The position numbers and the translations under genes were made by a program. The notes beneath the pieces were generated by a model. It saw nothing but the letters and a program-made list of their open reading frames with translations. It was not told where the DNA came from and did not search any database. From Promethearchaeota archaeon (lineage in GTDB: Archaea > Asgardarchaeota > Lokiarchaeia > Sigyniarchaeales > SOKP01), in contig JAHLWS010000034.1 of the NCBI GenBank assembly GCA_019057795.1, positions 16,057-80,056 on the forward strand: a stretch of DNA of 64,000 bases, written 5' to 3'. Position 1 is the first letter of the stretch. Each line of letters opens with the position of its first letter. This document shows positions 7,505 to 64,000 of this stretch, piece after piece.

Positions 7505-10500
7505 TTGAAGACTATGAAAAATTTTTGGAGAAAAATTAACTATCTATTAATTACGGTTTTAATAATTAACGCGATTATTAATCCTGTTCTTGGAATTGGA
7601 TCTGTAGGAAATATTAATCATAATAATATTCAAAAATTAGAGTTAGATTTCAGCGGATTAACGTATACTTCTTCAGATCAAGCAAATAATGAAAAATACG
7701 ATTCAATATTACCCTTTAATAAACAAAACGCGTTATTTGACGACTTATTGATAAAAGAATTAAATTTTATAAAATCATCTCAACAAAGTGATGCGACATT
7801 AATTAAGATTATAATCCTATTTAAAGATGGAATCTCAAAATCAGAAAGAATTAAATTAATCGATTCTGTTTTCGATGAGTATGAAATAATTAATAACTAT
7901 AATTTTATTCCAGGCGTTTACATGAAATGCGATCCAAAAGAATTAATTGCCAAAAAGGGTTTATTAGAAGTTAAATCCGCTTTAAAAAAGGTTTACAAGT
8001 CAAGATTTTATAGTTCACCCTCTTTTCAAGAGCAATTTCCAGAAACTAGTGCGTTAAGTAAAGATTCCTATCCAAATTGGTGGATACCTGCTGTGGGAGC
8101 AGATAATTTAGGTTACAACGGTAGTGGCGTAAAAGTTGCTGTGATTGATACTGGAATATACGAACACCCTGATTTAAACTTACTATTAAGCAGAAATTTT
8201 GTTTCTGAAGAAAATTCTTCTGAATACCAAGATTATGTGGGTCATGGAACTCACGTTGCAGGTATCATAGGGGGTGATGGTGGTAGTTCAGGCGGATTAT
8301 ACAGAGGTGTTGCTCCAGGTGTTTCTTTAATTAATGCAAAGGCTGGAGGCCTTTCGGGTTTAGAAGAAGGTGATATTATTAGCGCTATTGAATGGTCCGT
8401 TGACACCGCTAATGCAGATATTATTTCTATGAGTTTTGGCGATAATTATCCAATTGCGAGTGATATTTTGATATTAGCTCTAGCCAATGCTACAGAAAAC
8501 GGCGTAATGTGTGTTTCGTCAGCGGGAAATTCCGGACCAGATTATTTTTCTGGTGGTTCACCTGCTTCTGGCATAGATGTCATTTCGGTGGGGGCTTCAA
8601 ATAGAAATAACCATTTAGCATATTTTAGTAGTTGGGGACCATCATTATCTTATTTAAGTTATCCTGATATTGTTGCTCCGGGGGTAAATATTATCTCTAC
8701 CGAGGCGCCAGAATCGATTATATCCGATAGATATCGCTTTATTGGAGATTACTTCGATTTTTCGGGCGATGCAGATTACTTACCTTTAAGTGGGACAAGT
8801 ATGTCTTGCCCCGTTGTTGCTGGGGCTTTAGCAATTCTGAAACAAGCTTATTCTTCAATATCTCCTGAAACTGCGAGGATTGCCATATTGGAAGGTGCTC
8901 GAGATCTTTCCGATGTAGAAGATGTTGGATTTTTGAAATCTGGTTTTGGTTTAATTAATGTATCCGCTTCGCTTGACTATTTAAATTACTTAAATGCAAC
9001 TTATTCTAATATAAATGATGTATTAAAAATTGCTCCCAATGAATTGCCAGTACAACCGTACGATTTATTGAATTTCCCTGGAGATCGCCAATTATTTAAT
9101 TTAACCGTTATTTCAGGTATAGACAAAGATTACGACATCAATTATCCTAGTATTGTTGATGGAATTTCGTTGTTTATAGACAAATCTCAATTAACTTTTA
9201 GTGACGCTGGTGTGAATTTCATAGCGTTAGACATTGAAATAGAAAGAGATGCGGCGCCAGGGATAAGGACTTTTGAATTAAATATTACATCAGGAGTTAG
9301 GTTATACGATAAAATTAATGTTTCAATAGATGTTAGATTATCCGAGTATAGAGTTTTAATGGATTCTTACCACGGTTTGAATGATTATTTCCCAGAATTT
9401 TCTTTTTATCAGATGGATTTTTACGGTTGGATGAAAGATCTTTCAGATTTAAATATCTCTATCGATTACTTAGCGGAATTGTGGACTCCAAATTACAATT
9501 CCAGTTTAAATAATTCTATATTGACCGAAGAACGATTAGCTCAATACGACTTGGTGGTATTACAAAACCCTATCTTGCCCTATAATCCTCTAGAAATCCA
9601 TAATCTGAAAAGATATTTTGATAATGGAGGTAACATCTTGTTTTTAGGAACAAGATACCAAGATTTGTGTGTTGATAATATAAACGAGCTTTTTTCAGCA
9701 ATTAACTTAGGAATCCAAATTAACGAAGAGAATGTTGCCGATGAAAATTGGGTTGGACTTGGAGCAACAGTGGATACTCAAAGTATAACAGAATTTAACA
9801 ATTCTCAAATATTTCAAGATGTAAACAAGTTTATTTGGGACTATGGAAGTACTTTAACGGCTTCGGGGAATGCAGAAGCGATTGCTTCAGTAGATGGAAA
9901 AATAGTTGCTGTTGCAAACGATGGAAGATTATCCGGAAGAGGACGATTTGTAGCGTTTGGGGATCTACATTGGTCTGCCGAGTTGTACGAATCGCAAACC
10001 TATTATCAAGACCATTATAATTTAACAAAAAATCTAATGCGCTATTTCTTGGAAAAAGACGAAGTTTCTATAAATATTTTTCTCAATTATGAAAGGACGC
10101 CCACTTCTCAAGTAAATATTTCAATTTATGTGAAGGATCAAATTGGAGAAACGCCAGTTAGCTCAGCTACCCTAAATTCGTTTTTAAACGTATCAGTAGA
10201 AAACGATGCTTATTTTGAAACTGTAAATATGGTTTCAACGTCAGATGGTATCGCAATTAGCAATACTTTTTCTTTACTCAACCCAAGTAATAAACCATAT
10301 GTGATAAAAGTGAATCTAACAATTGGATCAAAGACTTACAATAAAACCTCCAAAATTCTTTATTACAACAGCTCAGAAGTTCCAAAGATATCTAGTTTAT
10401 TGGCCACTACTGACATCAAAAGAAATGGTGTTGATACATTAGATATCAAAGCCACGCTTGACGGAAATAATTATAATGCAACGGCTTATCTATCGATATA

Positions 10501-11487: not shown

Positions 11488-12138
11488 TTACTCTTTATTG
11501 TTGTTCAAGTTTTGGAGATCGGAATACTTCAACAAATCAATAACCCGATTGGGGTCCTTTGCATTTAAAATAGTACTTGTGCTGCTTAAAATATCGACAT
11601 TTAACTGGTTAGCGTTTATAAGATTTATCCCTCCATCTATATCAATAATAAAAGCATACTTTTTCTTAAGTTTAGCTAATTTTTCTACCTTTTCGATTGA
11701 ATGTGGAATGAATTTTTGACCAGACCTACCTGGATAAACTGACATCACTAAAACTAAGTCAACTAAATCCAAGTAAGGCGTTATTTCTGCAATTCTTGTA
11801 TCTGGATCGATTGCTAAGCCCACTCTTTTCTTCCTATTCTTCAGTTCATTTATTAGCGCTTTCTTATCTCCCGTTATTTCGTAATGAAAAGTAAAGATAT
11901 GAACATAATCAATAATTTTATCAATGTAATCAAAGGGATTGCTTACCATCAAATGGGCGATGATAGGAATATCATATCTCTCATTTAATATTCTAAATAA
12001 GTCCAAATCAAGGTTTATTACAGGTGTAAACTTTCCATCTGCAACATCAATATGTATGTAATCAAGCCCTACTAATCCCTCAAGAGGATCAAGATTAAAA
12101 TTTAGGTTTGCGTGAACAGCAACAGCAATCTTTTTCAT
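11488..12138 (-). CDS. rpe: ribulose-phosphate 3-epimerase
   Basis: [33 protein letters not shown] motifs. Confidence 0.93.
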
Positions 12139-12147
12139 CGTATTTAA

Positions 12148-12861
12148 TTATAAAACAATAACTTTTCCATCTTTTTGTCCTATATACGCTTTAGATGTCA
12201 TTCCTATGAAAAATCCTGTATCGACAACACCAGGAATTTTTAATAACTTGTCGTTCATATCTGAGGGGCTTTCAATTAAACCGAAATCAACATCGATAAT
12301 AAAATTACCATTATCGGTAACTAAAGGACCTGCTTTTGCTTGGGCCATCCTTAGTTTCGGTGTACCTCCTAATTTTTCTAACTTTTTCAAAATTGGAACA
12401 TATCCAAAAGGAATGACTTCGATTGGTACTCCCTTGTTCCAATTCTCTCCTAATTTTTCTGACTTTTTACGATAATCTGCGATAATTACTAACTTTTTTG
12501 ATGAATTAGCAACAATTTTCTCTTGAACTAAACACCCCCCACCTCCCTTAATTAAATTTAATTCTTTATCAATTTCATCGGCACCATCAATATCTAAGTC
12601 AATTTCAGGGTACTGATCTAAAGTAACGAGAGTAAGTCCATTTTCTACTATTAATTGACGAGACTGAAACGATGTCGGGATGCACTTCAAGTTCAAATCC
12701 TCTGCTTTATTGATCTCCGCTATTCTCTTGATGGCGTATACAACTGTGGAGCCACTTCCAATTCCCAAAATCATGCCTTTTTTGACATTTTCCTCGACTG
12801 CTTTAAACGCAGCGTTTTTTTTGCCTATTTCAATTAGATCTTCACTCATAAGTTTCACCAA
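12148..12861 (-). CDS. rpiA: ribose-5-phosphate isomerase A
   Basis: GIGSGST, DGADE, LIKGGGG, EKIV, TDNGN motifs; start may be the downstream ATG (MSED). Confidence 0.96.
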   Translation of the reverse strand: MVKLMSEDLIEIGKKNAAFKAVEENVKKGMILGIGSGSTVVYAIKRIAEINKAEDLNLKCIPTSFQSRQLIVENGLTLVTLDQYPEIDLDIDGADEIDKELNLIKGGGGCLVQEKIVANSSKKLVIIADYRKKSEKLGENWNKGVPIEVIPFGYVPILKKLEKLGGTPKLRMAQAKAGPLVTDNGNFIIDVDFGLIESPSDMNDKLLKIPGVVDTGFFIGMTSKAYIGQKDGKVIVL

Positions 12862-12863
12862 GA

Positions 12864-13286
12864 TTATTTTTTTAACAAATTAAGAATTCTGATCGCCAAA
12901 TAAGCAGCATTCTCGCCCCTATCTATTCCTACGCAAGCAACAGGAATCCTGGGGGGCATTTGTACGATAGACAATAACGCATCTAATCCACTTAATTTGG
13001 TACTAACGGGTACACCAATAACTGGCTTGTTAGTTTTAGATGCAATTACACCTGGTAAAGCCGCTGACAATCCAGCGACAGCAATATATACTAAGGATTG
13101 ACACGATTTTAAATAATCGTCTAATTTGTCTGGATCTCGGTGAGCAGATATAATTTGAAGTTCGTAAGTTATTTTGTTTTCTTTTAAAACATTCTCTGCT
13201 TTTTCATACACTTCTTTATCTGAAGTACTACCCGCTATTATTGAGACCAAAGTCATTTTACTTTTATCTATGTTCGTGTCTGGCAT
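12864..13286 (-). CDS. purE: N5-CAIR mutase / AIR carboxylase
   Basis: [36 protein letters not shown]. Confidence 0.95.
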
Positions 13287-13498
13287 ATTTAATCTAAATC
13301 TCCTAAAAATAAAAATAATACTAATAAAATCTTAATAATTTTTTGGATAAATTATCAAAAAGAAACATTTCATTGTTAAGGTTCAAAAACAATTTTATCG
13401 AAAACTTTAATATATTTTTAAATATTTTCATAAATGAATATCAAAAATTTATTGAAAATCAAGTAGTAAAAAATATTATAAATACGAGTGATATAAAA

Positions 13499-14836
13499 AT
13501 GGAATTAAATGAAGTATGGTTAGTAGATTACGCGCGAACTGCATTTTCACGATCAAGACCCGCTCAACCAGAAAGAGATGTATTCGGGGAAATTAAAGGA
13601 GATGAGCTTCTTATACTCTTACTGAAAAACATGTTTGAAAATAGATTAGCAGACAAAAGCATTGAAAAGAAGGATATAGATGAATTTACGATTGGATGTT
13701 CTTTTGGGGTAGGAGAACACTGGACTTATGGAGGTAAACTTCCTACTTATTATGTAGGTATGGATAAAAGAACATCTTGTGTATTTTTAGATAAGGCATG
13801 TGGATCAGCAGCAGCAGGGTTTAACTTAGGATTTATGGAAATTGCAATGGGTTATAGTAAATGTGTTTTATCAACAGGTATAGAACATCTCACGCGAGTC
13901 CCTATGGGCATAACAAACCAATGGATTAAGCCCAACCTCGCAATTGCTAGTAAAGACTCACCTTTCTATATGCCAGAATATGCACGAAAAGGTAAATACG
14001 ATGTACTTGTATCAACAGATATGTTAGCTACGGCACAAAAATTATTCGAAGAGGAAATCCCGAAATTTACAAAGGAAGATATGGATAAATTTGGAGTAAG
14101 AGCACATAATTTAACTATTAAAAGCCAAGAAGAAAAATGGTTCACGTCAGGTGTTAATGGAGGAGAGATTATTCCAATTGAAGGCCATGTAGAGGGAAAT
14201 ACTGAGGAACCAATGATGGTTGATAGAGACATGGCAGCAAGAAAATCAACTCTTGAATCTGTTGCAAAGTTAAGGTCTGTTTCCAAGCCTTTCTACATTA
14301 AAAAAACAGCATCCGGGCAAGAACTTGGTCGAAAAGGCTATATGGAATATGTAGGTAGTAAGGATGGTGTAATCACTGCAGGGAATGCTTCTCCTTTAAA
14401 TGCGGGAGCTACAGCATGTGTCATGATGAATGCTAAAGAGGCTCAAAAAAGAGGTATTAATCCTTTAGCTAAAGTTGTTTCTATTGGATTTGCAGGTGTA
14501 GATCCTACAGTAATGGGACGAGGACCTGTTCCTGCCTCAAAAATGGCGCTAGAACATGCTGGATTAACCGCTGATGATATAGATTTTTGGGAGATAAACG
14601 AAGCTTTTTGTATAGTGGCATTAAATTGCATGGATAAACTTGGTATTCCTGAAGAAAAAGTAAATATTAAAGGAGGCTCTACTGCAATTGGTCATCCATT
14701 GGGTGCTACAATGTGCCGCTTAATCGGTACTGTATCTCGCATACTAAAAGATAAAAACGCAAAATATGGAATAGCTAACGCGTGTTGTGGTGGCGGTCAA
14801 GGAGTAGCAGTTTTATTGGAAAATATTGATAAATAA
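13499..14836 (+). CDS. acetyl-CoA C-acyltransferase (thiolase), copy 1
   Basis: CGS catalytic Cys, TAGNAS, NEAF, GHPLG, CCGGGQG; start moved to ATG 13499 (MELNEVWL) by alignment with the adjacent paralog. Confidence 0.95.
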   Translation: MELNEVWLVDYARTAFSRSRPAQPERDVFGEIKGDELLILLLKNMFENRLADKSIEKKDIDEFTIGCSFGVGEHWTYGGKLPTYYVGMDKRTSCVFLDKACGSAAAGFNLGFMEIAMGYSKCVLSTGIEHLTRVPMGITNQWIKPNLAIASKDSPFYMPEYARKGKYDVLVSTDMLATAQKLFEEEIPKFTKEDMDKFGVRAHNLTIKSQEEKWFTSGVNGGEIIPIEGHVEGNTEEPMMVDRDMAARKSTLESVAKLRSVSKPFYIKKTASGQELGRKGYMEYVGSKDGVITAGNASPLNAGATACVMMNAKEAQKRGINPLAKVVSIGFAGVDPTVMGRGPVPASKMALEHAGLTADDIDFWEINEAFCIVALNCMDKLGIPEEKVNIKGGSTAIGHPLGATMCRLIGTVSRILKDKNAKYGIANACCGGGQGVAVLLENIDK

Positions 14837-14942: not shown

Positions 14943-16226
14943 ATGGAATTAAAAGAAGTATGGTTAATTGATTACGCGCGTACAGCGTTTTCGCGATCTA
15001 GACCTAAACAACCAGAAAGAGATGTATTTGGCGAAATTAGAGGCGACGAACTTCTTGCTAAATTGTTAATGAAATTTTTCGATGGAAAATTAGCGGATAA
15101 AGGAATCGAAAAGAAGGACATAGACGAGTTTACGGTTGGATCTGCCATGGGCGTCTGGGAGAATTGGGCTTATGGAGGTAGACTTCCAATGTTCTTAGCA
15201 GACTTTCCTTACGAAGTACCTGCTATGTTTGTAGATAGACAATGTGGATCAGCTGGTAGTGGAATGCATATTGGAATTATGGAGATTATGACGGGATATA
15301 GTAAAATTTGCATGGCTACAGGCGTTGAACACATGACTCGGGTCGATATGCAAAACAATCACATTCGCCCAAATCTGAAAATGATTAATAAAAAGAGTGA
15401 ATGGTATAGACCTAAATATGATTTAATGACAACAATTAACATGTTACAAACAGCTCAGAAATTATACGAACAAGAGGTGCCTGCTTTCACTAAAGAAGAT
15501 TTGGATAAATTCGGAGTGAGAGCTCATAATTTAACGATTAAAAATCAAGAAGCAGGTTGGTTTAAAGGAGAGATTATCCCAATTGAAGGCCATGTTGGTG
15601 GTAATGTAGAAGAACCATTAATGGTAGATAAAGATATGGCCGCGAGAAAATCAACTTTAGAAAGTGTTGCAGGATTGCGAAGGTTATCAAAACCATTTTT
15701 CCTAGAGAAAAATGGAGGCAGAGCGGGCTATAAAGAGAGAGAAGGAACTTCTGAAGGAGTAATAACTGCTGGGAACTCTTCACCTCTGAATGCTGGGGCT
15801 ACAGCTTGCATTGTAATGTCTGCTGAGGAAGCTAAAAAGCGAGGACTTGAACCGATGGCTAAGATAGTTTCACTTGGATGGGCAGGAGTAGATCCTAGCG
15901 TCATGGGTCGTGGTCCTGTTCCTGCAACGGAGATGGCCTTAAAGAGCGCTGGATTAACTGCTGATGATATCGATTACTGGGAAATTAACGAAGCTTTCTG
16001 CATTGTTGCTTTAAATTGTATGAAACATTTTAATATTCCTGAAGAAAAGGTAAATGTCATGGGTGGTTCTACCGCAATTGGTCATCCGCTAGGCTCTACG
16101 ATGGTAAGATTACCAGGAACTCTAGCTCGCATCCTAAAAGATAAAAAGGCTAAGTACGGCGTTGCAAACGCGTGCGTAGGTGGCGGACAAGGCGTTGCTA
16201 CGTTAATTGAAAACCTCGATGCCTAA
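14943..16226 (+). CDS. acetyl-CoA C-acyltransferase (thiolase), copy 2
   Basis: CGS, TAGNSS, NEAF, GHPLG, CVGGGQG; close tandem paralog of the preceding gene. Confidence 0.95.
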   Translation: MELKEVWLIDYARTAFSRSRPKQPERDVFGEIRGDELLAKLLMKFFDGKLADKGIEKKDIDEFTVGSAMGVWENWAYGGRLPMFLADFPYEVPAMFVDRQCGSAGSGMHIGIMEIMTGYSKICMATGVEHMTRVDMQNNHIRPNLKMINKKSEWYRPKYDLMTTINMLQTAQKLYEQEVPAFTKEDLDKFGVRAHNLTIKNQEAGWFKGEIIPIEGHVGGNVEEPLMVDKDMAARKSTLESVAGLRRLSKPFFLEKNGGRAGYKEREGTSEGVITAGNSSPLNAGATACIVMSAEEAKKRGLEPMAKIVSLGWAGVDPSVMGRGPVPATEMALKSAGLTADDIDYWEINEAFCIVALNCMKHFNIPEEKVNVMGGSTAIGHPLGSTMVRLPGTLARILKDKKAKYGVANACVGGGQGVATLIENLDA

Positions 16227-52623: not shown

Positions 52624-54003
52624 CTATTTTAAATTACGAAAATCAGGAATTATCTTCTGTAATCTCTCAATAAATGTTTCAAATTCGTCAAAATTGTCTT
52701 TGAATGGTTCGAGTTCCGAGATTAATTTATCGTAGTTAGTAGATAGATTTGTTTCGAAAGGGTGGTTTATCGCACTTATCCCTTTCAACATATTAATTGA
52801 GAGATTTTGGATTTGTTCCGTTAAACTTGATATTTCTTTAGTTGAATTTTCAATTCTTTCTTTTATCTTCACGTCTATCATCGAAATCTCGTATAATTTA
52901 TTAATAATCTCATTGAGATCTTTTTTAATCGATTTAGTGATATAATCGATACTCTGCTCTAAGTGTTTGTTTATTTCGTTCGTTAAGATTTCTTTAATTT
53001 CGTTTGTATTAGCTTTCAAATCTTCTTGTCCTGAAAGGCGCTTATTTATGTATTTTTTTACTTTTTCTTTATATTCGTTAATCCTTTCTTTAAATTTCTT
53101 TTCTATCCATTTTTCTACTCTTTCAAAGCCATTATCTATTGTTAAATTCATATATGCTAGCGAATCACTAATTTTATTTAGACCTTTTAACGCACCATCG
53201 TTAAATTCAGACGACCAAGTTTCTAACTCAGATTTGTAATCATTTAAAACTAAGTTCGAAAAATTTTGTAATCCTTTTTTAAAACCATCTACAACGGGAT
53301 TAATATCTTGGTATTCTAAATCGATTTCCATTTCCAATTGTTCCGCGGACATTGGAATTTCTTGAAGGTCGCGCGGAATTTCTTTTCTTAATTCTAATCT
53401 TTCCTCAATTATTATAGGGTTTTTTGTTTGTCCATATTCAACGAATTTTTGAACCCATTTGTAAAAATCTAAAGAGTTTGGTTTCTCTATTTCGTATTTA
53501 ACCTTTATATAATCGCTCTTTTCTCCTTTTGAGAGATCTCTTAATCGAAATATTTCTAAGCCAAAATTATCTGATTTTTTCATTTTGGAATGATCGAAAA
53601 CAATTCCAAATCCATATTGGAATTTTTCGTTCTGAAAATAAAGGTGATTTTTTTTATCAACATCAGAAAAGAAAAGCTTTTCAGCATCAGGATGGGAGTG
53701 ATACCATCCTACTATTGAAAGATTCTCGTTTGAAGCTTCTTCTTGAATTTGAATAAGTGAATTGTGAATTTTTTCCGAAAAACCTAATTCTACTTCATCT
53801 CCATGCGTGATTGGAATAATCTTTGTTATGGTAATGTCATCACTATCAAGGTTCTTTTTTCCAATGCAAAATCCAAGAACCTGTTCGTTATAATCTAGTA
53901 CGACATTAGCAAACCTTAATACATGGGTAAACATGTCCTTAAACGGGGCCATTTTAATGAAAACTTTACCTTTCTCGCTAATTTCTCGATTATTATCTGT
54001 CAT
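52624..54003 (-). CDS. MPN/JAMM domain protein with long coiled coil (Gln at the catalytic Glu position)
   Basis: EQVLG...VGWYHSHP...FFSDVD; heptad-rich C-terminal ~250 aa. Confidence 0.9.
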   Translation of the reverse strand: MTDNNREISEKGKVFIKMAPFKDMFTHVLRFANVVLDYNEQVLGFCIGKKNLDSDDITITKIIPITHGDEVELGFSEKIHNSLIQIQEEASNENLSIVGWYHSHPDAEKLFFSDVDKKNHLYFQNEKFQYGFGIVFDHSKMKKSDNFGLEIFRLRDLSKGEKSDYIKVKYEIEKPNSLDFYKWVQKFVEYGQTKNPIIIEERLELRKEIPRDLQEIPMSAEQLEMEIDLEYQDINPVVDGFKKGLQNFSNLVLNDYKSELETWSSEFNDGALKGLNKISDSLAYMNLTIDNGFERVEKWIEKKFKERINEYKEKVKKYINKRLSGQEDLKANTNEIKEILTNEINKHLEQSIDYITKSIKKDLNEIINKLYEISMIDVKIKERIENSTKEISSLTEQIQNLSINMLKGISAINHPFETNLSTNYDKLISELEPFKDNFDEFETFIERLQKIIPDFRNLK

Positions 54004-54005
54004 CT

Positions 54006-55466
54006 TTATTTGTTACCTCCTTGTTCTAGCTTCTTAATTTTTAATAATAGTTGTTTTTTTTCAGATTCTAATTTATCAATTTTCTCTAAAATAGGAGCTT
54101 TTGTGCCCTCCAAAATTAAAACAGCGGCTTTTAAATTCGTTAAGAATTTTTGCGACTTTATATTAAGGTTGTTAAGGTTATTTAACATTATAGTGTGTTT
54201 CTTTGAGGTTATATCGGAAGTTTCTTTTTGCATTGCTTTTATCTTATCAAGAGTAGCGTTTTTTATTGATTTTATTTGTTCAGATAAGGAATTTAATGAA
54301 TTTTCTAATTTTTCTAAATTATCAAGATTAACAGACACATTACCATTATAATCTATCAATTTTTTCTGGCAGTCATCAAAATCTCTCGAGAAATCATTTA
54401 TTAATCCTTCGAACTTTTCTTTAAATAACTTATTAACTTTTTCTTTAACGATAACATTTATCTCTTTTAGTAACTCGGCAATTTCTTCTTGATATCCGTC
54501 AATTTGGTCAAGAAAATCGTCAACATACCCTTCTGCTTTGAATAACTCAGAATTTAAATCGTCTTTGTATTTCCTTTGTATTTTATCAATTCCCGCGTTT
54601 ATCACATCTTTTAAAAGAGTTAAATCTTTCCTAATTTTTATATTATTATCTTCTATATTCGCTGAAATATTTGCGCTAAGAGAATTAAGGAAATTAATTA
54701 AAGGAGTTAACGATAAATCCAAAAAATTAGCGAGCCCTACTTGGAAAGAATCAATTATTTTACGCTGATTTATCTCTGGCTGTTTAAACTGTAATTGGCT
54801 AAGCTCAGGAACTTTTATATCTCCAAATATATCCACCGTTTCATTTTCTTCAGTTATGGGATGTTCTCTCGAGTGTACATTATTAATTAATTCTATAATT
54901 TTAATGTAATATTCAAAATTATCTGGTGCCTCAACTATTGTCTTAACTTGGTGAACTTTTGAATCATGAATGTTTGATGGATTAGTCAATCGAATTGCTC
55001 TAAATCCTGGGTCGTCGGGTCTATCTAAATAAGCATGATCAAAAACTAACGCGATTCCACTAGGGTTCAATTCGTTTTGCCAACCAAACTGGTTTTTAAC
55101 GTCTGTAGGTGAAAAGAAAATCTGGTGCTGGAACAAATTTGGATGACTATGATACCACCCAACCATGAACCAGTTCTTTTCCAAGTACAAGGAATTTGCT
55201 TTTTCGAAAAATATATAATCGTTAATCGAGAATTCTACTTCTACGCTGCTCCCGTGAGAAATTGGTATGGCATCCTCAATAATGACATTCTTAAATTTTT
55301 TATCTTCGCCATCTTCGAGGCGTCCAATAAGCACTCCCATTACTTCGATACATTGAGAATTATTTCTAGCCTTATTTCCAAAACGTAAGACATGTAATAT
55401 CATCTTATAATACGCGAGAGATTTGATCTTTACTACGCTGTTGTCTACATCTTTCCCCATTTTCAA
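54006..55466 (-). CDS. MPN+/JAMM isopeptidase (Rpn11/CSN5-like) with long coiled coil
   Basis: KMILH...EVMGVLIG...VGWYHSHP...FSPTD. Confidence 0.92.
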   Translation of the reverse strand: MKMGKDVDNSVVKIKSLAYYKMILHVLRFGNKARNNSQCIEVMGVLIGRLEDGEDKKFKNVIIEDAIPISHGSSVEVEFSINDYIFFEKANSLYLEKNWFMVGWYHSHPNLFQHQIFFSPTDVKNQFGWQNELNPSGIALVFDHAYLDRPDDPGFRAIRLTNPSNIHDSKVHQVKTIVEAPDNFEYYIKIIELINNVHSREHPITEENETVDIFGDIKVPELSQLQFKQPEINQRKIIDSFQVGLANFLDLSLTPLINFLNSLSANISANIEDNNIKIRKDLTLLKDVINAGIDKIQRKYKDDLNSELFKAEGYVDDFLDQIDGYQEEIAELLKEINVIVKEKVNKLFKEKFEGLINDFSRDFDDCQKKLIDYNGNVSVNLDNLEKLENSLNSLSEQIKSIKNATLDKIKAMQKETSDITSKKHTIMLNNLNNLNIKSQKFLTNLKAAVLILEGTKAPILEKIDKLESEKKQLLLKIKKLEQGGNK

Positions 55467-55685
55467 TCACTTTAATTTTTAAATATAGATATACAAAATA
55501 TTTTTGTTATATTTATACTTTAAACCATTCTAATTTAAAACACTTAATATAAAATATAATTTTATATCTTTTTTATTGATATTTGAAAATTTAAAAAATT
55601 AAGTACAGATATTTCAAAAAAGTAGTAGTAAAATGTAAGTCAAGAAGGAGTTAAAATAAGGAAATATAAAATAAGATCAAATTTT

Positions 55686-56339
55686 CTAATGCGGTAAAGG
55701 TTTTCCGCAGTAGGGACAGAATTTCCAATCCAAATCTTTTCCACAATGAGGGCAAAACGTAGAAACTGAGCCTCCTTCTCCTTTTGGAATCGTAGGCAAA
55801 TCTCTTGTAGTTCTCAACATAGATGGAGCAGTACCACCCGCTTGCGCCCTTTTTTCTTCCTTTATTATCTTCATTCTTTCTTGGAAAGCTTGGCGTTTTT
55901 CTTCTTCTAGTTCTTGAGCCGACTTCATACCCTCCTCTTTAACCCACCCTGTTACTTTAGGTCTTTTTAATTCGCTTTCAGGAACTTTTTCTAACTCTAC
56001 TTTTTTAGTTTCCGAAATTGAGGCAACCATTTTTCTTTTTTCTTTTTTCTCAAGAGATTGCTTTACCAAAGCTTGGGTGGTTTTCATGACTTGATGAGGA
56101 TTTATATTTGGGATTGCTACCGTTCGCAACACCCAGCCAACTATAAGATTTTGGTTAGGAATACCCGATTTAGTTATATCTTCATCCCTAAAAACATATG
56201 AGTCAATAACAGATTTACCTTTTAGCAAACGAGTTGCAAACTTGCCGTTTATAAGCCCTAATTGAATCCTATACGACGTTCCCGCGATTCCCAGCTGACT
56301 CGACAACGGTTCAAATCCTTTCTCTGCCATTTTAATCAA
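55686..56339 (-). CDS. hypothetical protein with C-terminal double zinc ribbon
   Basis: FCPHCG...FCPYCGKPL; charged linker. Confidence 0.8.
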   Translation of the reverse strand: MIKMAEKGFEPLSSQLGIAGTSYRIQLGLINGKFATRLLKGKSVIDSYVFRDEDITKSGIPNQNLIVGWVLRTVAIPNINPHQVMKTTQALVKQSLEKKEKRKMVASISETKKVELEKVPESELKRPKVTGWVKEEGMKSAQELEEEKRQAFQERMKIIKEEKRAQAGGTAPSMLRTTRDLPTIPKGEGGSVSTFCPHCGKDLDWKFCPYCGKPLPH

Positions 56340-56566
56340 CTATCCTTTACTATACGATTTTAATTAGTTGGAATTACAGTTAATTTAATTAAAAGTAATA
56401 ATATAATCATTAATTTTGAATTTAAATAATTTTATATTCATCTCAAAAATAATTAGTATTTGTGGGGGTTTGATTTTTTTATTATAAAAAAATTTCTTCA
56501 AAAAAAAACACATAAATACATGTAATAGTATAAAGTTATCAAAAATAATATGTTTATAATTAAAAT

Positions 56567-57517
56567 ATGACAATTTTTATCCCTAAAGATGTTTATTTAA
56601 CTATAGTGGCTGCTTGTGTGAGACAGGCTAATAGACGCATTAATAAAGACGATTGGCTTGAAGTTTCAGGTATTTTTATAGGAAAAAACGAAGGAAATGA
56701 TGTCATTATTACAAAAGCTTATCCTATAATGCATCAAGTGTTAGATAAAGACGCTGTTATCGATCAATATAAATGGAGCGACGAAGATTATGAAGCACTA
56801 TATATTATAGACGACGAAGCGTTTTCGAGGAACGAATTCACAGTAGGATGGTGGCATTCTCATCCCGGATTCAAAATCATGATGAGCCACATAGATATCA
56901 AAACGACATTGAGCTATCAAACTAATAATCCGCTCGCGATATCGCTCGTGTTTAATCCAGATAGGTTAGTAAAGCAGATAGAGCTTCCTAATAAAAAAGG
57001 GGATCCGGTGAAACAGCTGAAGAACGATCCCGGTTTTAAGATATTTAGTTTAGATGATGTTACCAAAGGAATAGCAGCATCGTATCATACTTTAGATTAT
57101 AAAATTGCGGGATATGAAAGCATGGAACAATTAGTCGTATTAACACAGAAATTCGTAATCGACATTACTAATATGTTCCCTAAAGACAACATATTTGAAA
57201 CTTACGATAAGTTCGTAACCGATAGGATTAACGAACTGAATTCCTTATTGCAAGGAACGGAAGAGTATTTAACTACATTAATTAGAAAGGGGGAATCGAG
57301 TAGAGTACAAGAAGTTTTAAACGTTCAAACTCGCGATATTCGCAAATTTGTAGCTGAAACTTTTATAAAAATAGAAAATATCAAGGAATTTACGAATTAT
57401 TTGGAGTATAAAGAAAGAGAAAGTGTAATTCCGAAAATACAAGAGATATTATCTAAATGGGATGAAAGTAATGAAAAATTAGGCGTAAAATTGGCAGAAA
57501 TTGCTAAAAAATTTTAA
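56567..57517 (+). CDS. MPN+/JAMM isopeptidase (Rpn11-like) with helical C-terminus
   Basis: EVSGIFIG...VGWWHSHPGF...SHID. Confidence 0.92.
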   Translation: MTIFIPKDVYLTIVAACVRQANRRINKDDWLEVSGIFIGKNEGNDVIITKAYPIMHQVLDKDAVIDQYKWSDEDYEALYIIDDEAFSRNEFTVGWWHSHPGFKIMMSHIDIKTTLSYQTNNPLAISLVFNPDRLVKQIELPNKKGDPVKQLKNDPGFKIFSLDDVTKGIAASYHTLDYKIAGYESMEQLVVLTQKFVIDITNMFPKDNIFETYDKFVTDRINELNSLLQGTEEYLTTLIRKGESSRVQEVLNVQTRDIRKFVAETFIKIENIKEFTNYLEYKERESVIPKIQEILSKWDESNEKLGVKLAEIAKKF

Positions 57518-57987: not shown

Positions 57988-59499
57988 TTATGATTTTATA
58001 ACTTCGATTTTTTGTATAATTTCTTCTAATTCTGATATATTTTCATCGAAGGTTACCGTCATTAGTCTCATTTTTAAATTTTTAATATCTTCTAAGATTG
58101 AGTAAAACTCTTCCTCAACGTTTTCTGATAATTCGTCTAGCAGATTATAAGCTTTTTTAGAGCGCTTTAAATCAAAAATTTCATGAGTTACCAACATTTG
58201 TAGATAAGTCTTATTAATCATTTCTAGCCATTTTTGTGCTTCAACATTTAGATCAATAAGAACATTCATATATCCAGTTTTTATTGCTTCTTCCAATTTT
58301 TCTCTATGATTATTTATGATTGATTCAATATATTCGAATATCTTCTTTTTAATTAATTTGATATTTATTTTTGGATTCACAAAGAAAATAGCAGTAACAG
58401 ATTCAAACCCGAAAATAACCATGTTTATATTACGTCCTTTTAATTCAAAATCTGATAGATCTGAGAGATTCATTTCTTGTGAAAAACTTCGTAAAGCACT
58501 GATAAAACTCGGAATGAGTTCAATATCTAATAATTTTCCATCCGGAGTTTTTAATTCCAAAAATATATTAAAAGCACCATTAAACAACTCTACATTCAAT
58601 AAAACTAAACCTGTTTTATTTACTAGAAAAAATCCTATAAACGATGGAACCTCTATTTTTTTTTGACCTTCATCAGTTTTTAAATAATTTTTATCAAACT
58701 TAATAAGATTCTCTAAAGGAAAATAGTTCACTAAGTTATCATAATTTTTTTTCCCTTCATGGGTTATCATTAGTAATTTCTCTCCAACCACTTCGAAAAT
58801 TTCTATATGCTTTTTTTTTTGGAGAATATCAATAATATCATTTAATTGTTGATTCACTAAATTAGATTTTTCTTGTAGACTGTTATAAGAAAGGATATTT
58901 TTATCTTTAAAATACGATAAGACTTTTATAATTGTTCTTAATAAACTTGAATCAAATTTTTTTAAGGTTGTTAATTCTGAAAGAGCAGCACTTATTATGT
59001 TAATAAATACAGAATAAGTATGTAGAAAATAATCTCTTGTAATACTTGTGAATTCAACACTGAAATTTAATTTGTTTTTGAATAATTCATTTATTTTTTT
59101 TCTTTTTATAACTAATTCTCCTTTATCTAATAAATCAATTTTATGTACTAATAAAGTAATATAAGTAAATCCATAAGATTCTTCTCTAATCTTAATGATT
59201 TTCCTTGTAAAATTGTAGATATCTTCAAATGATGCTTTAGCCTCCACCACAATTATTATATTTTCCGCATCGTAAAAGACCTTCTTTCCTTTCCCCTCTA
59301 ACCATTTTTCATTTTCTTGTCCTGCTAAGTCAAAAATTCCAATATCTTCATTTAAATTTAGAATGATTGATTCTAGTCCATGTGTTGGTTTTAACGAGTA
59401 TTTTAATAGATGTGATGAATGTTCTCCTTCAAAGAAGATTTTTCGAAGCGTTGTTTTACCTACTCCAGGAGGTCCAACAAAAACTAACTTTCTACTCAT
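57988..59499 (-). CDS. Rag/Gtr-like small GTPase fused to winged-helix and longin/roadblock-like domains
   Basis: G1 GPPGVGKT, G2 PT, G3 DLAGQ, G4 HKID, G5 TSI; ITHEG wing; FFLVNKTGLVL...LIPSFISALRSFSQEM. Confidence 0.85.
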   Translation of the reverse strand: MSRKLVFVGPPGVGKTTLRKIFFEGEHSSHLLKYSLKPTHGLESIILNLNEDIGIFDLAGQENEKWLEGKGKKVFYDAENIIIVVEAKASFEDIYNFTRKIIKIREESYGFTYITLLVHKIDLLDKGELVIKRKKINELFKNKLNFSVEFTSITRDYFLHTYSVFINIISAALSELTTLKKFDSSLLRTIIKVLSYFKDKNILSYNSLQEKSNLVNQQLNDIIDILQKKKHIEIFEVVGEKLLMITHEGKKNYDNLVNYFPLENLIKFDKNYLKTDEGQKKIEVPSFIGFFLVNKTGLVLLNVELFNGAFNIFLELKTPDGKLLDIELIPSFISALRSFSQEMNLSDLSDFELKGRNINMVIFGFESVTAIFFVNPKINIKLIKKKIFEYIESIINNHREKLEEAIKTGYMNVLIDLNVEAQKWLEMINKTYLQMLVTHEIFDLKRSKKAYNLLDELSENVEEEFYSILEDIKNLKMRLMTVTFDENISELEEIIQKIEVIKS

Positions 59500-59780: not shown

Positions 59781-60149
59781 ATGTCAAAACAGATTTATGT
59801 AGTTGAAGATAATAGAAAAAATATGGAATTGTTCATAGCTGTCTTAGAAACACTTCCAGATTTAAAACTTTTTACAGCTACTAAAGGGAAAGAGGGACTT
59901 GAGTTAATAAAATCTGGCAACCCTGATATTATAATTCTAGATATACAACTACCAGATATTAATGGAACTGAGATTTGTAAAGAACTCCGTGAGATTGAAA
60001 GATTTAGGACAACTCCAATTATTGCAGTATCTTCATTAGCAATGAAGGGTGATAAAGAAATGATAATGGAGGCAGGATTCGATCATTATATATCAAAACC
60101 AATAATGATTAAAGATTTTAGAGAGTTTATTCAAAATTTATTGAAATGA
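59781..60149 (+). CDS. single-domain response regulator (DivK-like)
   Basis: VEDN, ILDIQLP, AVSSLAMKGD, YISKPI. Confidence 0.95.
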   Translation: MSKQIYVVEDNRKNMELFIAVLETLPDLKLFTATKGKEGLELIKSGNPDIIILDIQLPDINGTEICKELREIERFRTTPIIAVSSLAMKGDKEMIMEAGFDHYISKPIMIKDFREFIQNLLK

Positions 60150-60199: not shown

Positions 60200-60853
60200 A
60201 TGCTCAATAAAATATCAGATATGTATAACTATTTTAAAGAATGGTTAGAGAAATATCAATTTGTACTAATTGTTGGAAAATATGATCATCATTTAGGTCC
60301 AAGAGCTTTATATTCTTCTGTTCCACTGAAAGATGAGGTGTTTGTCAGAGACCTTTTGGAAGACGCATTAAATACAAATAATAAATATGTTAATTTAGAT
60401 TTTGACCAATTTTATTCTCAAGTGTGTAAAATTGAAGTGGAGGATCTACATGCTCGAGGAGGAAATCAATTATATGCTTTAATATTTTTAAGAGATATCC
60501 TATATCCTCTGATTCCAATTATTCATTTTCAACGAATCGAAATGATGTTTCGAACATTAGGAGAGGAAACTATTTTATCTGACAATCGAGAAGCTTTTAA
60601 AAAGCTTTATAATCAAATTTATGAAGTTTATTTGAAAAAAGATCTTTTAGCACCCTTAGAAGATTTTAGTATAAAAATTCGCAGTGGTCTTAATACTATA
60701 ATAGGTTTTGCTGATTTAATTTTAGAAAGGACAAAACAAGGAAATCTCTCTGATCATTCACTTATAACATATACGGAAATGGTGCGAGATTCTGGTAAAG
60801 AAATACAGAAAGCTATTGAATCTATGTTTTTAGATTTAAAAGAAAAAAAATGA
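60200..60853 (+). CDS. longin/uDENN-like (folliculin/SMCR8-type) domain fused to a degenerate HisKA lacking the phospho-His
   Basis: YDHHLGP hairpin, DLHARGG; C-terminal FSIKIRSGLNTIIGF versus MSHELRTPLNSIIGF of the neighbouring kinase. Confidence 0.7.
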   Translation: MLNKISDMYNYFKEWLEKYQFVLIVGKYDHHLGPRALYSSVPLKDEVFVRDLLEDALNTNNKYVNLDFDQFYSQVCKIEVEDLHARGGNQLYALIFLRDILYPLIPIIHFQRIEMMFRTLGEETILSDNREAFKKLYNQIYEVYLKKDLLAPLEDFSIKIRSGLNTIIGFADLILERTKQGNLSDHSLITYTEMVRDSGKEIQKAIESMFLDLKEKK

Positions 60854-61090
60854 CAGTATCTTTGTCGATTTTTAAATTTTATATAAAATTAAGAAAAAAA
60901 ATTCATGGATAATAAGAAGTAATTTTTATAGAACCCCCTACTACTGGAAAGAAAACTATTAAGAAAGTGCTTTTCGAAATGGTTAATCTGCTTAGGCTTC
61001 TAGCTTTTTTTAATTTAACCAAAAAAGGACATAAAAGAGAAACTACGATAATGAAATAAGGGTGTAAAAAAATTGGAGAGAAAAAAAAAA

Positions 61091-62587
61091 ATGAAACAAA
61101 TTATTATTTTTGGGGTTTTAGTCCTATTTCTTGAATTAACAATTTTTATTATGCCTGGTTATCTCTTATTAGTTCCAAGTATTGCAGATACAGAATCAAA
61201 ATCTATAATTTTAGATAACGAACCAAAATCTTCACAAATCAATCTAAAAATAATTGTATCTGATCAACAAGCTCCTACTATTATAGGCGTAATTGACGAT
61301 TTCTTGGCAGATTCATTAGGATCTGGTGTTAATGATGTAGAAGTAGTGGCTTCTGGAACCATAGTAGATGATCAACACACCTTTTTAGTAGAGCAAATGA
61401 TACTTGGATCTACTGAATTTGATGTCATTGGGCTAGATACTATTTGGCTTGCTCAATTTGCAGAAAATGATTGGATTATTGAACTTGATTCACGCTTAAA
61501 TTTAGGAGAATTAGATGATTATGTAGATAGTTTGGTAGATTCTTGTAAATATAAAGAAATAACCTATGCATATCCTTATTTTATGAATTTAGGCATTTTA
61601 TTTTATAGAAAGGATCTTATCGAAGATCATGGATTTAGTGAAACCGATTTTGATACTTGGTTAGAATTGAATGCAACAGCAAATTTTATCTTAAATAATG
61701 TAAGCGGTCAATTAAAAGATCCCAACTTAGTTGGATATGTTGGTCAATTTGATACATATGAAGGTGGGGTAGTAAATTTTTTTGAATGGGCTAGTAGTTA
61801 TGGAGCCACAAATCTAATTACTAGCGAAGGAGATGTTAATATTAACAACCCCAATGTTGAAGATGCTATGACATTTCTACAAGCATTATTCCCTCCTCAA
61901 TTTACTGGAGTTCAAGGAACGCCTTATATAATCCCACGTGTAGGGCTTGTCATGGATGAGGCCTCATCTGTAAGTAAATGGCTTGCTAATGAGTCAATAT
62001 TCATGAGACAATGGACATTTGCTTACATGAATTCTGTTAATAATAATTTATCATTTGGAGTTGTTCCTCTCCCTACTGCTTCTGGTGCAACAGGTGAAAA
62101 ATCATCATGTGTTGGTGGTGCAGTTTTAGCAATTCCAAACTATAGTCAAAATCAGGAAGCAGCTTGGAACCTAACAAGATACCTTGGTGATCAATTAGCT
62201 CAGGAATTTGAACTTACAAACGCATCAAATTTCCCAGCTTTAAAAAGCGTATATAATTTTCCACCACCAGGATTTAATTGGATAAAGAATTGGACGAGCC
62301 AATTTCAGAAAACATTGGCAAGACCGGTTCATCCAAAATATCCATTAATTTCTTCGGTAATCGCTGATTCGTTTAGCGATATATTAAAAAAAATAAAAGC
62401 TATTAATGTTACTTTAGCAGAAATGGAAGCAGCAATATTAAAAATTATTTCTGATGAAGATGAGGTGCCCCCATCTGAACCATCTGGTATAATTGCGGGA
62501 TATAACATTATACTTCTATTACTTTTAAGTGTATTAATTATTTCATTAATTGCAGTAATCTATAAAAAAAATCGTGATATTAATTGA
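61091..62587 (+). CDS. extracellular sugar-type solute-binding protein with C-terminal Loki-CTERM-like anchor
   Basis: DVIGLDTIW.AQFA, YAYP, LFYRKDL, GGAVLAI, ARPVHPKY; IAGY-TM-KK tail; ORF track start is TTG 61073. Confidence 0.88.
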   Translation: MKQIIIFGVLVLFLELTIFIMPGYLLLVPSIADTESKSIILDNEPKSSQINLKIIVSDQQAPTIIGVIDDFLADSLGSGVNDVEVVASGTIVDDQHTFLVEQMILGSTEFDVIGLDTIWLAQFAENDWIIELDSRLNLGELDDYVDSLVDSCKYKEITYAYPYFMNLGILFYRKDLIEDHGFSETDFDTWLELNATANFILNNVSGQLKDPNLVGYVGQFDTYEGGVVNFFEWASSYGATNLITSEGDVNINNPNVEDAMTFLQALFPPQFTGVQGTPYIIPRVGLVMDEASSVSKWLANESIFMRQWTFAYMNSVNNNLSFGVVPLPTASGATGEKSSCVGGAVLAIPNYSQNQEAAWNLTRYLGDQLAQEFELTNASNFPALKSVYNFPPPGFNWIKNWTSQFQKTLARPVHPKYPLISSVIADSFSDILKKIKAINVTLAEMEAAILKIISDEDEVPPSEPSGIIAGYNIILLLLLSVLIISLIAVIYKKNRDIN

Positions 62588-64000
62588 TGTTAACAAAAAA
62601 ATTCAAAATTTTTATTATTTCAGTTATATCTTTTATTAGTCTCATCGCTTTAATTATCAGTTTATTTTTCTTGTTTAATCCAATTGTAATTGATTCACAA
62701 TTAACTTTACGTGTAGGAGCATATGAGAATGAGCCAAAAATATACACCAATAATGATGGTAATGTTGTTGGGTTTTTTCCTGAACTTTTAGAACATATTG
62801 CATTAAAAGAAAGATGGGAAATAGAATATATTCATGGTACATGGGTTCAATGTTTGGAAAGATTGGAGAATAATGAAATAGATATTATGGTTGATGTTGC
62901 ATATACAGAAGCTAGATCTGAAAAATATGATTTCACTAATATTGATGTATTAACAAATTGGGGAATTGTGTATAAAAAAGTTGGGTCTAGAATTGAAACA
63001 TTATCTGACTTAGAAGGCAAGAAAGTAGCGGTAATGGCAGGAAGTGTCCATACTGATGGAGAAAAGGGCATAAAAAACATCACTAAAAAAATGGACATTA
63101 ATTGTACTTTTATTGAACTTGACGATTATTACCAAGTTTTTGAGATGTTAGGCGGTGGAGGGGCTGATGTTGGTATTGTTAATAGGTTATTCGGAATATT
63201 TACCGAAGGACAATACGATGTTGAAGTAACCTCAATAATTTTTAATCCTATGGGACTACGGTTTGCTTTTCCAAAAAATGCTAGTATGAATCAATATTTA
63301 ATTACAAGTATAGATAAACATCTACTTGATTTGATTGAAGATTCAAACTCAATATATTACGAACTACTTGAATCATATATTTATAGGTTTAACGAATTTA
63401 GGATTCCCGAATGGGTAATAATAACAGTTGTTATCTCAATTGGATTAGTTGCCCTATTGTTTTCCATGAGTGCTATTTTGGAACGAAAAGTAAGGTCAAG
63501 AACCACCGAATTGCAAAAAGCTCACAATGAATTGGAAGAAAGAGTTATTAAGCGAACAAAAGAATTACAGCAAGCAAATGTCAAATTGAAAGAACTTGAC
63601 CGCTTAAAGAGTATGTTCTTAGCCAGTATGAGCCACGAGTTACGCACACCTTTAAATTCTATCATTGGATTTACAGGTTGGCTCTTAATGGGTATGGTAG
63701 GTGATTTAAACGAAGAACAAAGAAAACAACTCACTATGGTAAAATTTAGTGCAAATCACCTCTTGGATTTGATTAATGATATTCTGGACGTTTCGAAGAT
63801 AGAAGCTGGTAAAACTGATTTGGCTATTACAAAGTTTGAAATTGATGAGGCTGTAAATGATGTTGTAAGCAGTGTTCTACCATTAGCAAAGGATAAAGGG
63901 TTAAAACTAATATATAATATTCCAAAAGGGATAATCTTAAACAGTGATAAACGTCGTATAAAACAGGTCTTAATGAACCTTGTTAGTAACGCTATAAAAT
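62587..64000 (+). CDS. membrane sensor histidine kinase with family-3 (amino-acid-type) solute-binding domain; runs off window end (absent from ORF track)
   Basis: TGATG overlap; TM, LRVGAYENEPKIY...GFFPELL...W.QCLE.L.NNEIDI, LEGKKVAV; second TM; FLASMSHELRTPLNSIIGF; QVLMNLVSNAIK. Confidence 0.92.
   Translation, partial: MLTKKFKIFIISVISFISLIALIISLFFLFNPIVIDSQLTLRVGAYENEPKIYTNNDGNVVGFFPELLEHIALKERWEIEYIHGTWVQCLERLENNEIDIMVDVAYTEARSEKYDFTNIDVLTNWGIVYKKVGSRIETLSDLEGKKVAVMAGSVHTDGEKGIKNITKKMDINCTFIELDDYYQVFEMLGGGGADVGIVNRLFGIFTEGQYDVEVTSIIFNPMGLRFAFPKNASMNQYLITSIDKHLLDLIEDSNSIYYELLESYIYRFNEFRIPEWVIITVVISIGLVALLFSMSAILERKVRSRTTELQKAHNELEERVIKRTKELQQANVKLKELDRLKSMFLASMSHELRTPLNSIIGFTGWLLMGMVGDLNEEQRKQLTMVKFSANHLLDLINDILDVSKIEAGKTDLAITKFEIDEAVNDVVSSVLPLAKDKGLKLIYNIPKGIILNSDKRRIKQVLMNLVSNAIK

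Follow-up and report, generated by a model that had tools for sequence, protein, structure and literature searches.

A Lokiarchaeial longin domain with a candidate arginine finger, fused to a histidine-less DHp hairpin and encoded near Rag-like GTPases

We analysed a gene within a 64,000-nucleotide stretch of Promethearchaeota archaeon DNA (assembly GCA_019057795.1, contig JAHLWS010000034.1, forward-strand positions 16,057 to 80,056; hereafter the window, whose own numbering is used throughout). According to the open reading frame (ORF) list and its translation, the gene at 60200-60853 on the forward strand is an intact ORF for a protein of 217 amino acids (aa). It lies in AT-rich DNA (~27% G+C) and is single copy in its own genome. 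The protein joins a longin domain to a DHp hairpin, the dimerisation and phospho-acceptor element of HisKA histidine kinases, in which the histidine is replaced; these two domain identities are very probably correct, and we refer to the gene as longin-DHp. Its features are listed with the evidence on which each was placed.

60200 to 60853, forward strand: longin-DHp gene, stop codon included (ORF list and translation; all homologues Lokiarchaeial)
60254 to 60640, forward strand: longin domain, aa 19-147 (AlphaFold2 model, VIA-align, Foldseek, ESM Atlas)
60275 to 60313, forward strand: GP-motif hairpin GKYDHHLGPRALY, aa 26-38 (conservation among 100 distinct relatives)
60443 to 60463, forward strand: β4-β5 loop D82-L-H-A-R86-G-G88, candidate arginine finger (conservation, Folliculin profile column)
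60647 to 60844, forward strand: His-less DHp (HisKA-like) hairpin, aa 150-215 (VIA-align to the HK853 DHp, HisKA profile)

An earlier note on this DNA had proposed an arginine-finger domain of the folliculin/SMCR8 type fused to a HisKA module without its histidine, and the motifs it quoted are all present in the 217-aa protein at the residues it gave. EDLHARGGNQLYALIFL occupies aa 81-97, with the R86 codon (CGA) at 60455-60457, and FSIKIRSGLNTIIGF occupies aa 156-170, with the I158 codon (ATA) at 60671-60673. Two Pfam matches only were found in the protein, Folliculin (PF11704, E 0.027) and HisKA (PF00512, E 0.048), and both miss the curated cut-off (14.2 bits against 26.9 for HisKA). Among the 27 aligned members that were used for Pfam and for AlphaFold2 (AF2), Folliculin was matched by all 27 (best E 7.2e-5), none reaching the curated cut-off, and HisKA was matched by 18 (best E 0.001). 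The resemblance to Folliculin and to HisKA exceeds chance.

The AF2 model, built on the 27-sequence alignment, has a predicted local distance difference test (pLDDT) score of 90.3. An N-terminal helix (aa 2-18) precedes the β-β-α-β-β-β-α-α succession of a longin domain (β1 22-29, β2 33-39, α1 46-57, β3 63-67, β4 71-81, β5 89-99, α2 107-118, α3 130-145), and two long helices follow. G33-P34 stands at the start of β2, and R86 is in the loop between β4 and β5. Foldseek ranked GATOR1 and FLCN complexes first (E ~1e-4). With VIA-align the best match was NPRL2 (Z 12.4, 132 residues aligned, root-mean-square deviation (rmsd) 2.9), followed by a Loki Roadblock-Longin protein (8yqg; Z 11.5), FLCN (11.4), yeast Npr2/3 (11.1) and SMCR8 (9.0). 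A shape search of the ESM Atlas returned a Heimdall cluster partly annotated as Pfam Folliculin, then eukaryotic NPRL2/Npr2 and SMCR8; Lokiarchaeial Arf-family GTPases with a fused longin were also returned. The earlier assignment to uDENN/longin domains therefore stands for the longin fold seen with AF2 and VIA-align and falls for the DENN part, the domain being longin only.

The two motifs of this domain are strongly conserved. Counted over 100 distinct relatives, D29, G33 and P34 of the GP hairpin are kept in 99, 99 and 98, and D82, A85, R86 and G87 of the arginine loop in 97, 93, 98 and 99, respectively. The hairpin had been likened to the [FW]DxxxGP motif, and its GP does open β2 and is near-invariant. 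By longin topology the GP turn between β1 and β2 and the β4-β5 loop would lie at the same end of adjacent strands, which agrees with a 2025 study in Traffic (PMC12290439), where the GP motif is a neighbour of the arginine finger. The second motif had been likened to DxxARGF, with R86 as the finger of a GTPase-activating protein (GAP). In Pfam alignments, aa 78-102 of the window protein fall on positions 53-77 of the Folliculin profile, and a 41-residue FLCN peptide (FLCN 149-189, verified in PDB 6ULG) falls on positions 46-86, both ungapped; R86 and FLCN R164 are therefore both at profile column 61. The proposal would have been abandoned had R86 varied among homologues or lain on another loop; it is kept in 98 of 100 and is on the β4-β5 loop. 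The arginine fingers of the eukaryotic longins are R164 in FLCN, R78 in NPRL2 and R147 in SMCR8; chain 6ces_N was confirmed as NPRL2, with its finger at residue 78.

Most longin and roadblock dimers are platforms or exchange factors (TRAPP, Mon1-Ccz1, DENN, Ragulator), and exchange-factor longins match the model nearly as well as GAP-type longins do (Fuzzy/Inturned, Mon1-Ccz1 and BLOC-3 at Z 8-10 in VIA-align). The longin-DHp protein might accordingly be a non-catalytic GTPase platform or an exchange factor, its hairpin a dimerisation module only and without a link to any receiver. Such a role would also sit well with the reading of an Asgard FLCN-like module as a candidate exchange factor, given by Liu et al. 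2020 (bioRxiv 10.1101/2020.10.19.343400), and with the genomic loci described below, at which direct adjacency of a receiver gene is not the rule. It is made less likely by the GP and arginine signature: the two motifs are near-invariant here, yet absent from non-GAP longins according to PMC12290439. Furthermore, a hairpin that did nothing but dimerise would not need the H-box surface R161, S162, N165 and T166, which is kept at 87-97%. We consider this platform or exchange-factor role quite unlikely, and continue with the protein as a putative GAP-type longin.

The family is small and confined. A word-indexed search found 47 homologues of the longin-DHp protein, and an exhaustive HMMER search of 1.84 billion representatives matched just 26 clusters. 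Every record with a name belongs to the Promethearchaeota (Lokiarchaeia), and across 301 genomes of the phylum the matches listed were confined to one order. We recovered 49 genomic loci with the gene, among them one of the cultured Promethearchaeum syntrophicum MK-D1 (L021). The ORF frame is intact in ~100 distinct relatives, and mean column identity among the 27 aligned members is 59%.

Stand-alone longins of 162-184 aa form a sister family (L054:463-951, L055:353-907 and L056:419-928). They retain HYxxKLGPQ and LDSxARGGxQRYAL, motifs nearer to the DSLARGFQRWY of FLCN than the window protein's own. Because these stand-alone sisters keep the GP motif and the arginine, the DHp-fused family is a derived branch of a wider Asgard longin group that has both. 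Two distant members of ~390 aa (L057:683-1849 on the reverse strand, and P0057) have an N-terminal PAS domain before the longin-DHp unit, the layout of a sensor kinase without its ATPase domain.

Those PAS-bearing members are one reason to ask whether the protein is instead a decaying sensor-kinase remnant with a PAS- or GAF-like N-terminal sensor and no GTPase-related function. Iterated sequence searches also recruit, over the region beginning near residue 95, the kinases encoded in the same clusters, and an ESM Atlas search by language-model features with residues 1-148 gave clusters of GAF and PocR sensors, at noise level (up to 0.81). The fold, in contrast, is that of a longin and not PAS or GAF, the single-copy gene has kept its frame and its sequence across the relatives to the degree given above, and a GTPase gene is adjacent at 38 of the 49 loci. 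Conservation and fold exclude a decaying remnant, to which we give next to no credence.

The C-terminus forms the DHp-like hairpin that the earlier note required of it. In the AF2 model its helices span aa 150-180 and 185-215, and the protein ends 2 residues past the hairpin. Residues 150/151-217 superpose on the HK853 DHp (252/253-317; Z 9.9-9.1, rmsd 2.1-1.5 Å over 65-66 residues), and by the ranges of that superposition HK853 His260 is opposite residue 158. In the Pfam HisKA profile residue 160 is at column 13, so that I158 is at column 11. The sensor kinase encoded downstream (ORF start 62584/62587) carries MSHELRTPLNSIIGF, an intact H-box with its His at ORF residue 351; its residue 342 is at HisKA column 2, so that His351 is at column 11 too. 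The substitution of Ile158 for the histidine of this kinase's H-box, read earlier from the letters, is thus upheld by the shared column. So is the absence of an ATPase domain, since Pfam gave no HATPase_c match in the 217-aa protein and the chain ends at residue 217. Nor is there a DENN domain or an NPRL2 C-terminal domain, aa 150-215 being the hairpin.

The H-box is preserved around the missing histidine. R161, S162, N165, T166, I167, G169 and F170 are kept in 87-98 of the 100 relatives, and all of them except N165 are each at or above 88% despite the loss of His. At position 158, 94 relatives have Leu, Met, Ile or Val, and four have His (P0028, P0059, P0060 and P0071). The only members without R86 are P0059 and P0060, and both carry His158; this coincidence hints that a phosphotransfer role may be traded against a GAP-type one. 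Another relative, P0068 (556 aa), has six consecutive HisKA-like stretches (Pfam E 1.6e-37) and otherwise no clear domain, and is a tandem array of DHp hairpins.

The genes flanking longin-DHp in the window lie in the order 503-aa GTPase (reverse strand), receiver, longin-DHp, solute-binding protein (61073-62587) and sensor kinase, which runs to the window end.

57988 to 59499, reverse strand: divergent Rag-family GTPase, 503 aa (Pfam Gtr1_RagA, E 5.9e-9)
59781 to 60149, forward strand: stand-alone receiver (REC), 50 bp upstream of longin-DHp (Pfam Response_reg, E 8.5e-24)
60916 to 61056, forward strand: apparent remnant of a ~293-aa Rag-like GTPase gene (tblastn with the downstream GTPases of other loci)
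62584 to 63999, forward strand: sensor histidine kinase, cut by the window end (Pfam HisKA, E 5.7e-20; SBP_bac_3)

For the wider family, ORFs were called at the 49 distinct loci, many of them with short flanks, and searched with profiles made from the window's own proteins. Longin-DHp has a Rag/Arf-like GTPase gene as its direct neighbour in 38 loci, and 45 have one no more than 5 kb away; the same distance takes in a kinase gene in 40 loci and a receiver-containing gene in 36. For comparison, GTPases account for 79 of the 5579 ORFs in the window's genome, kinases for 21 and receivers for 17. The commonest order begins with a ribbon-helix-helix (RHH)-DHp-REC gene (~285 aa) and a GTPase gene (~495 aa), both on the reverse strand, followed by longin-DHp and a GTPase of ~293 aa; beyond these lie two large kinases, more GTPases and a stand-alone receiver. 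The cluster GTPases retain the switch-II DxxGQ, and most have HKxD rather than NKxD at the G4 motif. HKxD at this position is characteristic of Rag GTPases. One class of cluster GTPases is Arf-like in about half of its members, with GLDxAGKT and NKxD.

The GTPase of the window itself has DLAGQ at switch II and HKID at G4. In its AF2 model (pLDDT 76, predicted TM score 0.38) a winged helix is placed between the G domain and a roadblock-like domain, after which come ~100 residues of long helices as a tail. Foldseek matched it best to full-length Gtr1/RagA/RagC and to a RagA-like GTPase of Lokiarchaeial origin (PDB 8YL2), at E 2e-14 to 1e-10. A functional link of the longin-DHp protein to Rag-like GTPases is likely, and in this genome the 503-aa Rag-family GTPase is the most likely candidate client. 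The ~293-aa GTPase that follows longin-DHp in most relatives appears to survive here as a frame at 60916-61056 that reads EVIFIEPPTTGKKTIKKVLFEMVN and is 62% identical over 24 aa to the N-terminus of that GTPase (tblastn E 8e-8, in a very small database). Its P-loop is degenerate (EPPTTGKKT), and stops come before and after the frame. No orthologue of the ~293-aa GTPase was found elsewhere in the assembly, where the best match was the window's own 503-aa GTPase.

Several other genes recur or stand nearby. Seventeen cluster ORFs of ~250-290 aa (such as L018:5183-6037 on the reverse strand, L005:787-1647 and L026:5167-6012) encode a protein with an N-terminus that reads as ribbon-helix-helix-like, a DHp with its His, a receiver and no ATPase domain; to judge from this make-up, it could be the phosphotransfer protein and the DNA-binding output of the cluster's relay. 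In the window, 61073-62587 encodes a membrane-anchored solute-binding protein of the sugar type whose stop overlaps the start of the kinase at 62584-63999; that kinase has a family-3 solute-binding domain of its own, and the pair occupies the place where relatives have a Rag-like GTPase and large PAS kinases. Just upstream of the 503-aa GTPase gene, three JAB/MPN (Rpn11/CSN5-like) genes surround a zinc-ribbon gene (52624-57517); two of the three have long C-terminal extensions, and Pfam JAB was matched at E 1e-9 to 1e-13. An origin of the locus from a dismembered kinase (longin-DHp, an inserted GTPase and a stand-alone ATPase fragment) was rejected as a general explanation, because a short ATPase fragment follows the GTPase in one locus (L026) and full kinases follow elsewhere.

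The stand-alone receiver directly upstream is one of an orthologous group of ~122-aa receivers met repeatedly in the clusters; across 17 orthologues from these clusters D54, D10 and K106 do not vary. MK-D1 has its orthologue directly upstream of longin-DHp, as in the window (L021: receiver 7529-7924, longin-DHp 8004-8636), with GTPases at 11952-13103 and 13149-14438. We modelled a complex of the receiver with two copies of residues 146-217, both partners supplied as alignments. The model scored 0.65, compared with 0.02 for the best of three controls; the mark for this score is reached by 58 of 80 solved complexes and by 2 of 110 mismatched pairs. The runs share at least 95% of their contacts, and the partner pLDDT is at least 86. 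On the receiver the interface comprises α1 residues 11-21, residue 56 beside D54, and loops 85-87 and 106-111; on the hairpin it comprises residues 157-173, 176 and 191-198, which include 10 of the 12 most conserved hairpin residues. This is the canonical kinase-regulator interface. Because kinase-regulator pairs (HK853-RR468) are solved, the success of the model may reflect likeness to them, or memory of them, and not the affinity of this pair. The model supports docking of the receiver on the hairpin, a possibility evenly poised between holding and failing.

The same interface is open to an opposite use. The longin would then be an effector or adaptor that senses which nucleotide the Rag-like GTPase carries, and the His-less DHp would act on the phosphorelay by sequestering the receiver, by dephosphorylating receiver~P in the way of a kinase-dead kinase that is still phosphatase-competent, or by poisoning a neighbouring kinase through a DHp heterodimer. 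This reversed flow is the main rival, with the same parts. In HisKA kinases the His+1 and His+4 positions serve phosphatase activity, for which the His is not always needed. Here the H-box is conserved without its His, His+4 is Ser, Thr or Asn in 93 of 100 relatives and His+1 is Gln, Glu or Asn in 80, and the complex model sets receiver residue 56, beside D54, against residues 157-159. Full kinases are within 5 kb in the 40 loci counted above, and the RHH-DHp-REC protein is a second ATPase-less DHp protein that recurs in the clusters. Set against these points, His+1 is mostly Gln and not the Glu/Asp of the HisKA phosphatase motif, and the near-invariant R86 and GP motif, which are marks of catalytic GAP longins, are left unexplained. 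We regard flow in this direction as rather unlikely. Control may pass from receiver to longin or from longin and GTPase to receiver.

We favour the view that the protein is a Lokiarchaeial 'GAP longin' of the FLCN/NPRL2/SMCR8 type in which a degenerate DHp replaces the C-terminal domain, and as a whole explanation we place it slightly below an even chance. The hairpin would form a four-helix bundle, giving a homodimer that presents two longin domains and stands in for the longin heterodimers of FLCN-FNIP2 or NPRL2-NPRL3. The longin pair would bind the neighbouring Rag-like GTPase, here the 503-aa protein encoded at 57988-59499, and R86 would complete the GTPase active site beside the GTPase's own switch-II Gln, acting as a GAP. 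For this predicted GAP activity through R86, which we draw from the motifs, the chances appear balanced. The His-less H-box surface would dock the stand-alone receiver (59781-60149) in the manner of a kinase, without phosphotransfer, and its phosphorylation state, set by the cluster kinases, would gate GAP activity or localisation. That the hairpin is a dedicated reader of receiver phosphorylation, switching an arginine-finger GAP for Rag-like GTPases on and off, is a doubtful proposition. Of the earlier note's picture of a receiver-docking module that controls a GAP domain, the domain assignments hold; its functional part goes beyond the evidence, docking coming from one complex model.

Several observations weigh against a GAP longin under receiver control. 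SNARE and adaptor longins also score Z 8-10 in VIA-align (VAMP7 Z 10.1) and the Loki Roadblock-Longin protein scores 11.5, and with these so close, the fold alone shows a longin and not specifically a GAP longin. At 14.7 bits the window protein misses the curated Folliculin cut-off of 23.3. Alignment of the family to vertebrate FLCN with hhalign gave a single segment in the expected register (E79-L97 with F157-I175), which was not significant (probability 1.7%); its templates, seven vertebrate FLCN N-termini, are nearly uninformative as a set because they are 89-91% identical to the first sequence. When a profile of the family alignment was run against PDB sequences, neither FLCN nor NPRL2 nor SMCR8 came up, and the matches were limited to weak ones with CheY and kinases (E of 0.047 or higher). 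The equivalence of R86 and R164 is one of profile column and register, and the likeness to NPRL2, with its R78, one of overall fold. No second longin gene, such as would encode a non-catalytic partner comparable to FNIP2, NPRL3 or C9orf72, is adjacent to longin-DHp. A receiver-containing gene is directly adjacent in only 7 of the 49 loci, and all that this genome appears to retain of the GTPase partner usually encoded downstream is a remnant. The family is patchy within its genus, with a match in at least 9 of 27 genomes.

We compared the protein with the eukaryotic GAP longins. FLCN, which acts with FNIP2 as a GAP for RagC/D (PDB 6NZD, 6ULG, 8DHB), has the same longin fold (Z 11.4-10.9). HGPR, at residues 14-17 of vertebrate FLCN, and D-x-x-A-R-G-x-Q-x-x-Y are common to both proteins, R86 is in the R164 column, and the genes beside longin-DHp encode Rag-family GTPases. 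Unlike FLCN, the longin-DHp protein has neither a DENN domain nor a FNIP-like partner gene, and the long β2-α1 insert of vertebrate FLCN is absent from it. NPRL2 of GATOR1, the GAP for RagA/B with its Arg78 finger (PDB 6CES, 7T3B, 9V0J), gives the closest structural match (Z 12.4-10.4 over 128-133 aligned residues, rmsd ~3 Å), whereas the NPRL2 C-terminal domain, NPRL3 and DEPDC5 have no counterpart here and Pfam NPR2 is not matched.

On the two-component side, the hairpin can be superposed on that of HisKA DHp-receiver complexes (HK853-RR468; 3DGE, 5UHT, 4JAV) and keeps an H-box remnant, xxIRSGxNTIxGF. It differs in having I158 for the phospho-acceptor His, no ATPase domain, and a longin in the sensor position. 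DivL of Caulobacter, to which the earlier note had compared the protein, is a pseudo-kinase that binds DivK~P; both have a DHp without the phospho-His and a proposed reading of the state of a single-domain receiver. In DivL a Tyr replaces the His, PAS sensors and an ATPase domain are retained, and a domain that regulates GTPases is absent, while the longin-DHp protein has no ATPase domain. The likeness is therefore an analogy and not membership; it stands for the His-less DHp and is loose because DivL keeps its ATPase domain. In the MglA-MglB-RomR system of Myxococcus, a GAP of the roadblock/longin superfamily for a small GTPase works with a receiver-domain protein (PMC9481161, PMC13408092). 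In contrast to the present protein, MglB forms a homodimer of the roadblock type, no DHp serves to dock RomR, and the GTPase families differ. MglB is not known to use an arginine finger.

Rag-, Arf- and Rab-like GTPases are numerous in Asgard archaea, as are proteins of the longin and roadblock types. Liu et al. (10.1101/2020.10.19.343400) describe NPRL2-like longins fused to two-component domains in Asgard archaea, and they propose that two-component systems feed these longins and that Asgard growth is controlled through two-component systems with eukaryote-like regulators. The Traffic study (PMC12290439) covers 15 Asgard longins, reports both the GP motif and an arginine finger among them, treats the GP motif as specific to GAP-type longins and next to the finger, and suggests that Asgard longins with both may be GAPs, asking about Rag or Arf-related clients. 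The longin-DHp protein shares with the longins of both papers its Asgard origin, its NPRL2/FLCN-like longin, and an identically arranged GP motif and arginine. With longin and DHp in one chain it fits the kind described by Liu et al., whose hypothesis of phosphorelays as the input to eukaryote-like Rag regulators can be carried over to it directly, and longin-two-component fusions of this general kind are already published. We found no text on the His-less DHp architecture or its synteny in the available portions of the literature; the family might be included in Figure 5c of Liu et al. or in Data S1 from the Traffic study. The restriction to Lokiarchaeia, the adjacency to Rag-like GTPases and the orthologous stand-alone receiver are not named in those portions of the two texts.

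Tran et al. (PMC10933270) reported that the GTPases of MK-D1 are generally not in operons with longins, and regulators therefore cannot be matched to GTPases. The longin-DHp family is an exception: it is single copy, carries the signature of GAP longins, and is beside a Rag-like GTPase in about four of five loci. A cultured strain is included, which offers a defined set of regulator, GTPase and receiver for biochemistry. From its domains and neighbours, the longin-DHp protein is a plausible link between the Rag-type and two-component signalling systems. If R86-dependent GAP activity and docking are true, the mechanism of FLCN and GATOR1 would date from before eukaryogenesis, and its archaeal input would be a two-component phosphorelay, in line with what Liu et al. 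proposed on the basis of domain fusions. Were the hairpin a dedicated reader of receiver phosphorylation that switches such a GAP, a phosphorelay of the bacterial type would directly drive a switch of the FLCN/GATOR1 type in Lokiarchaeia, a living example of nutrient or environmental sensing wired to Rag GTPases before TOR existed.

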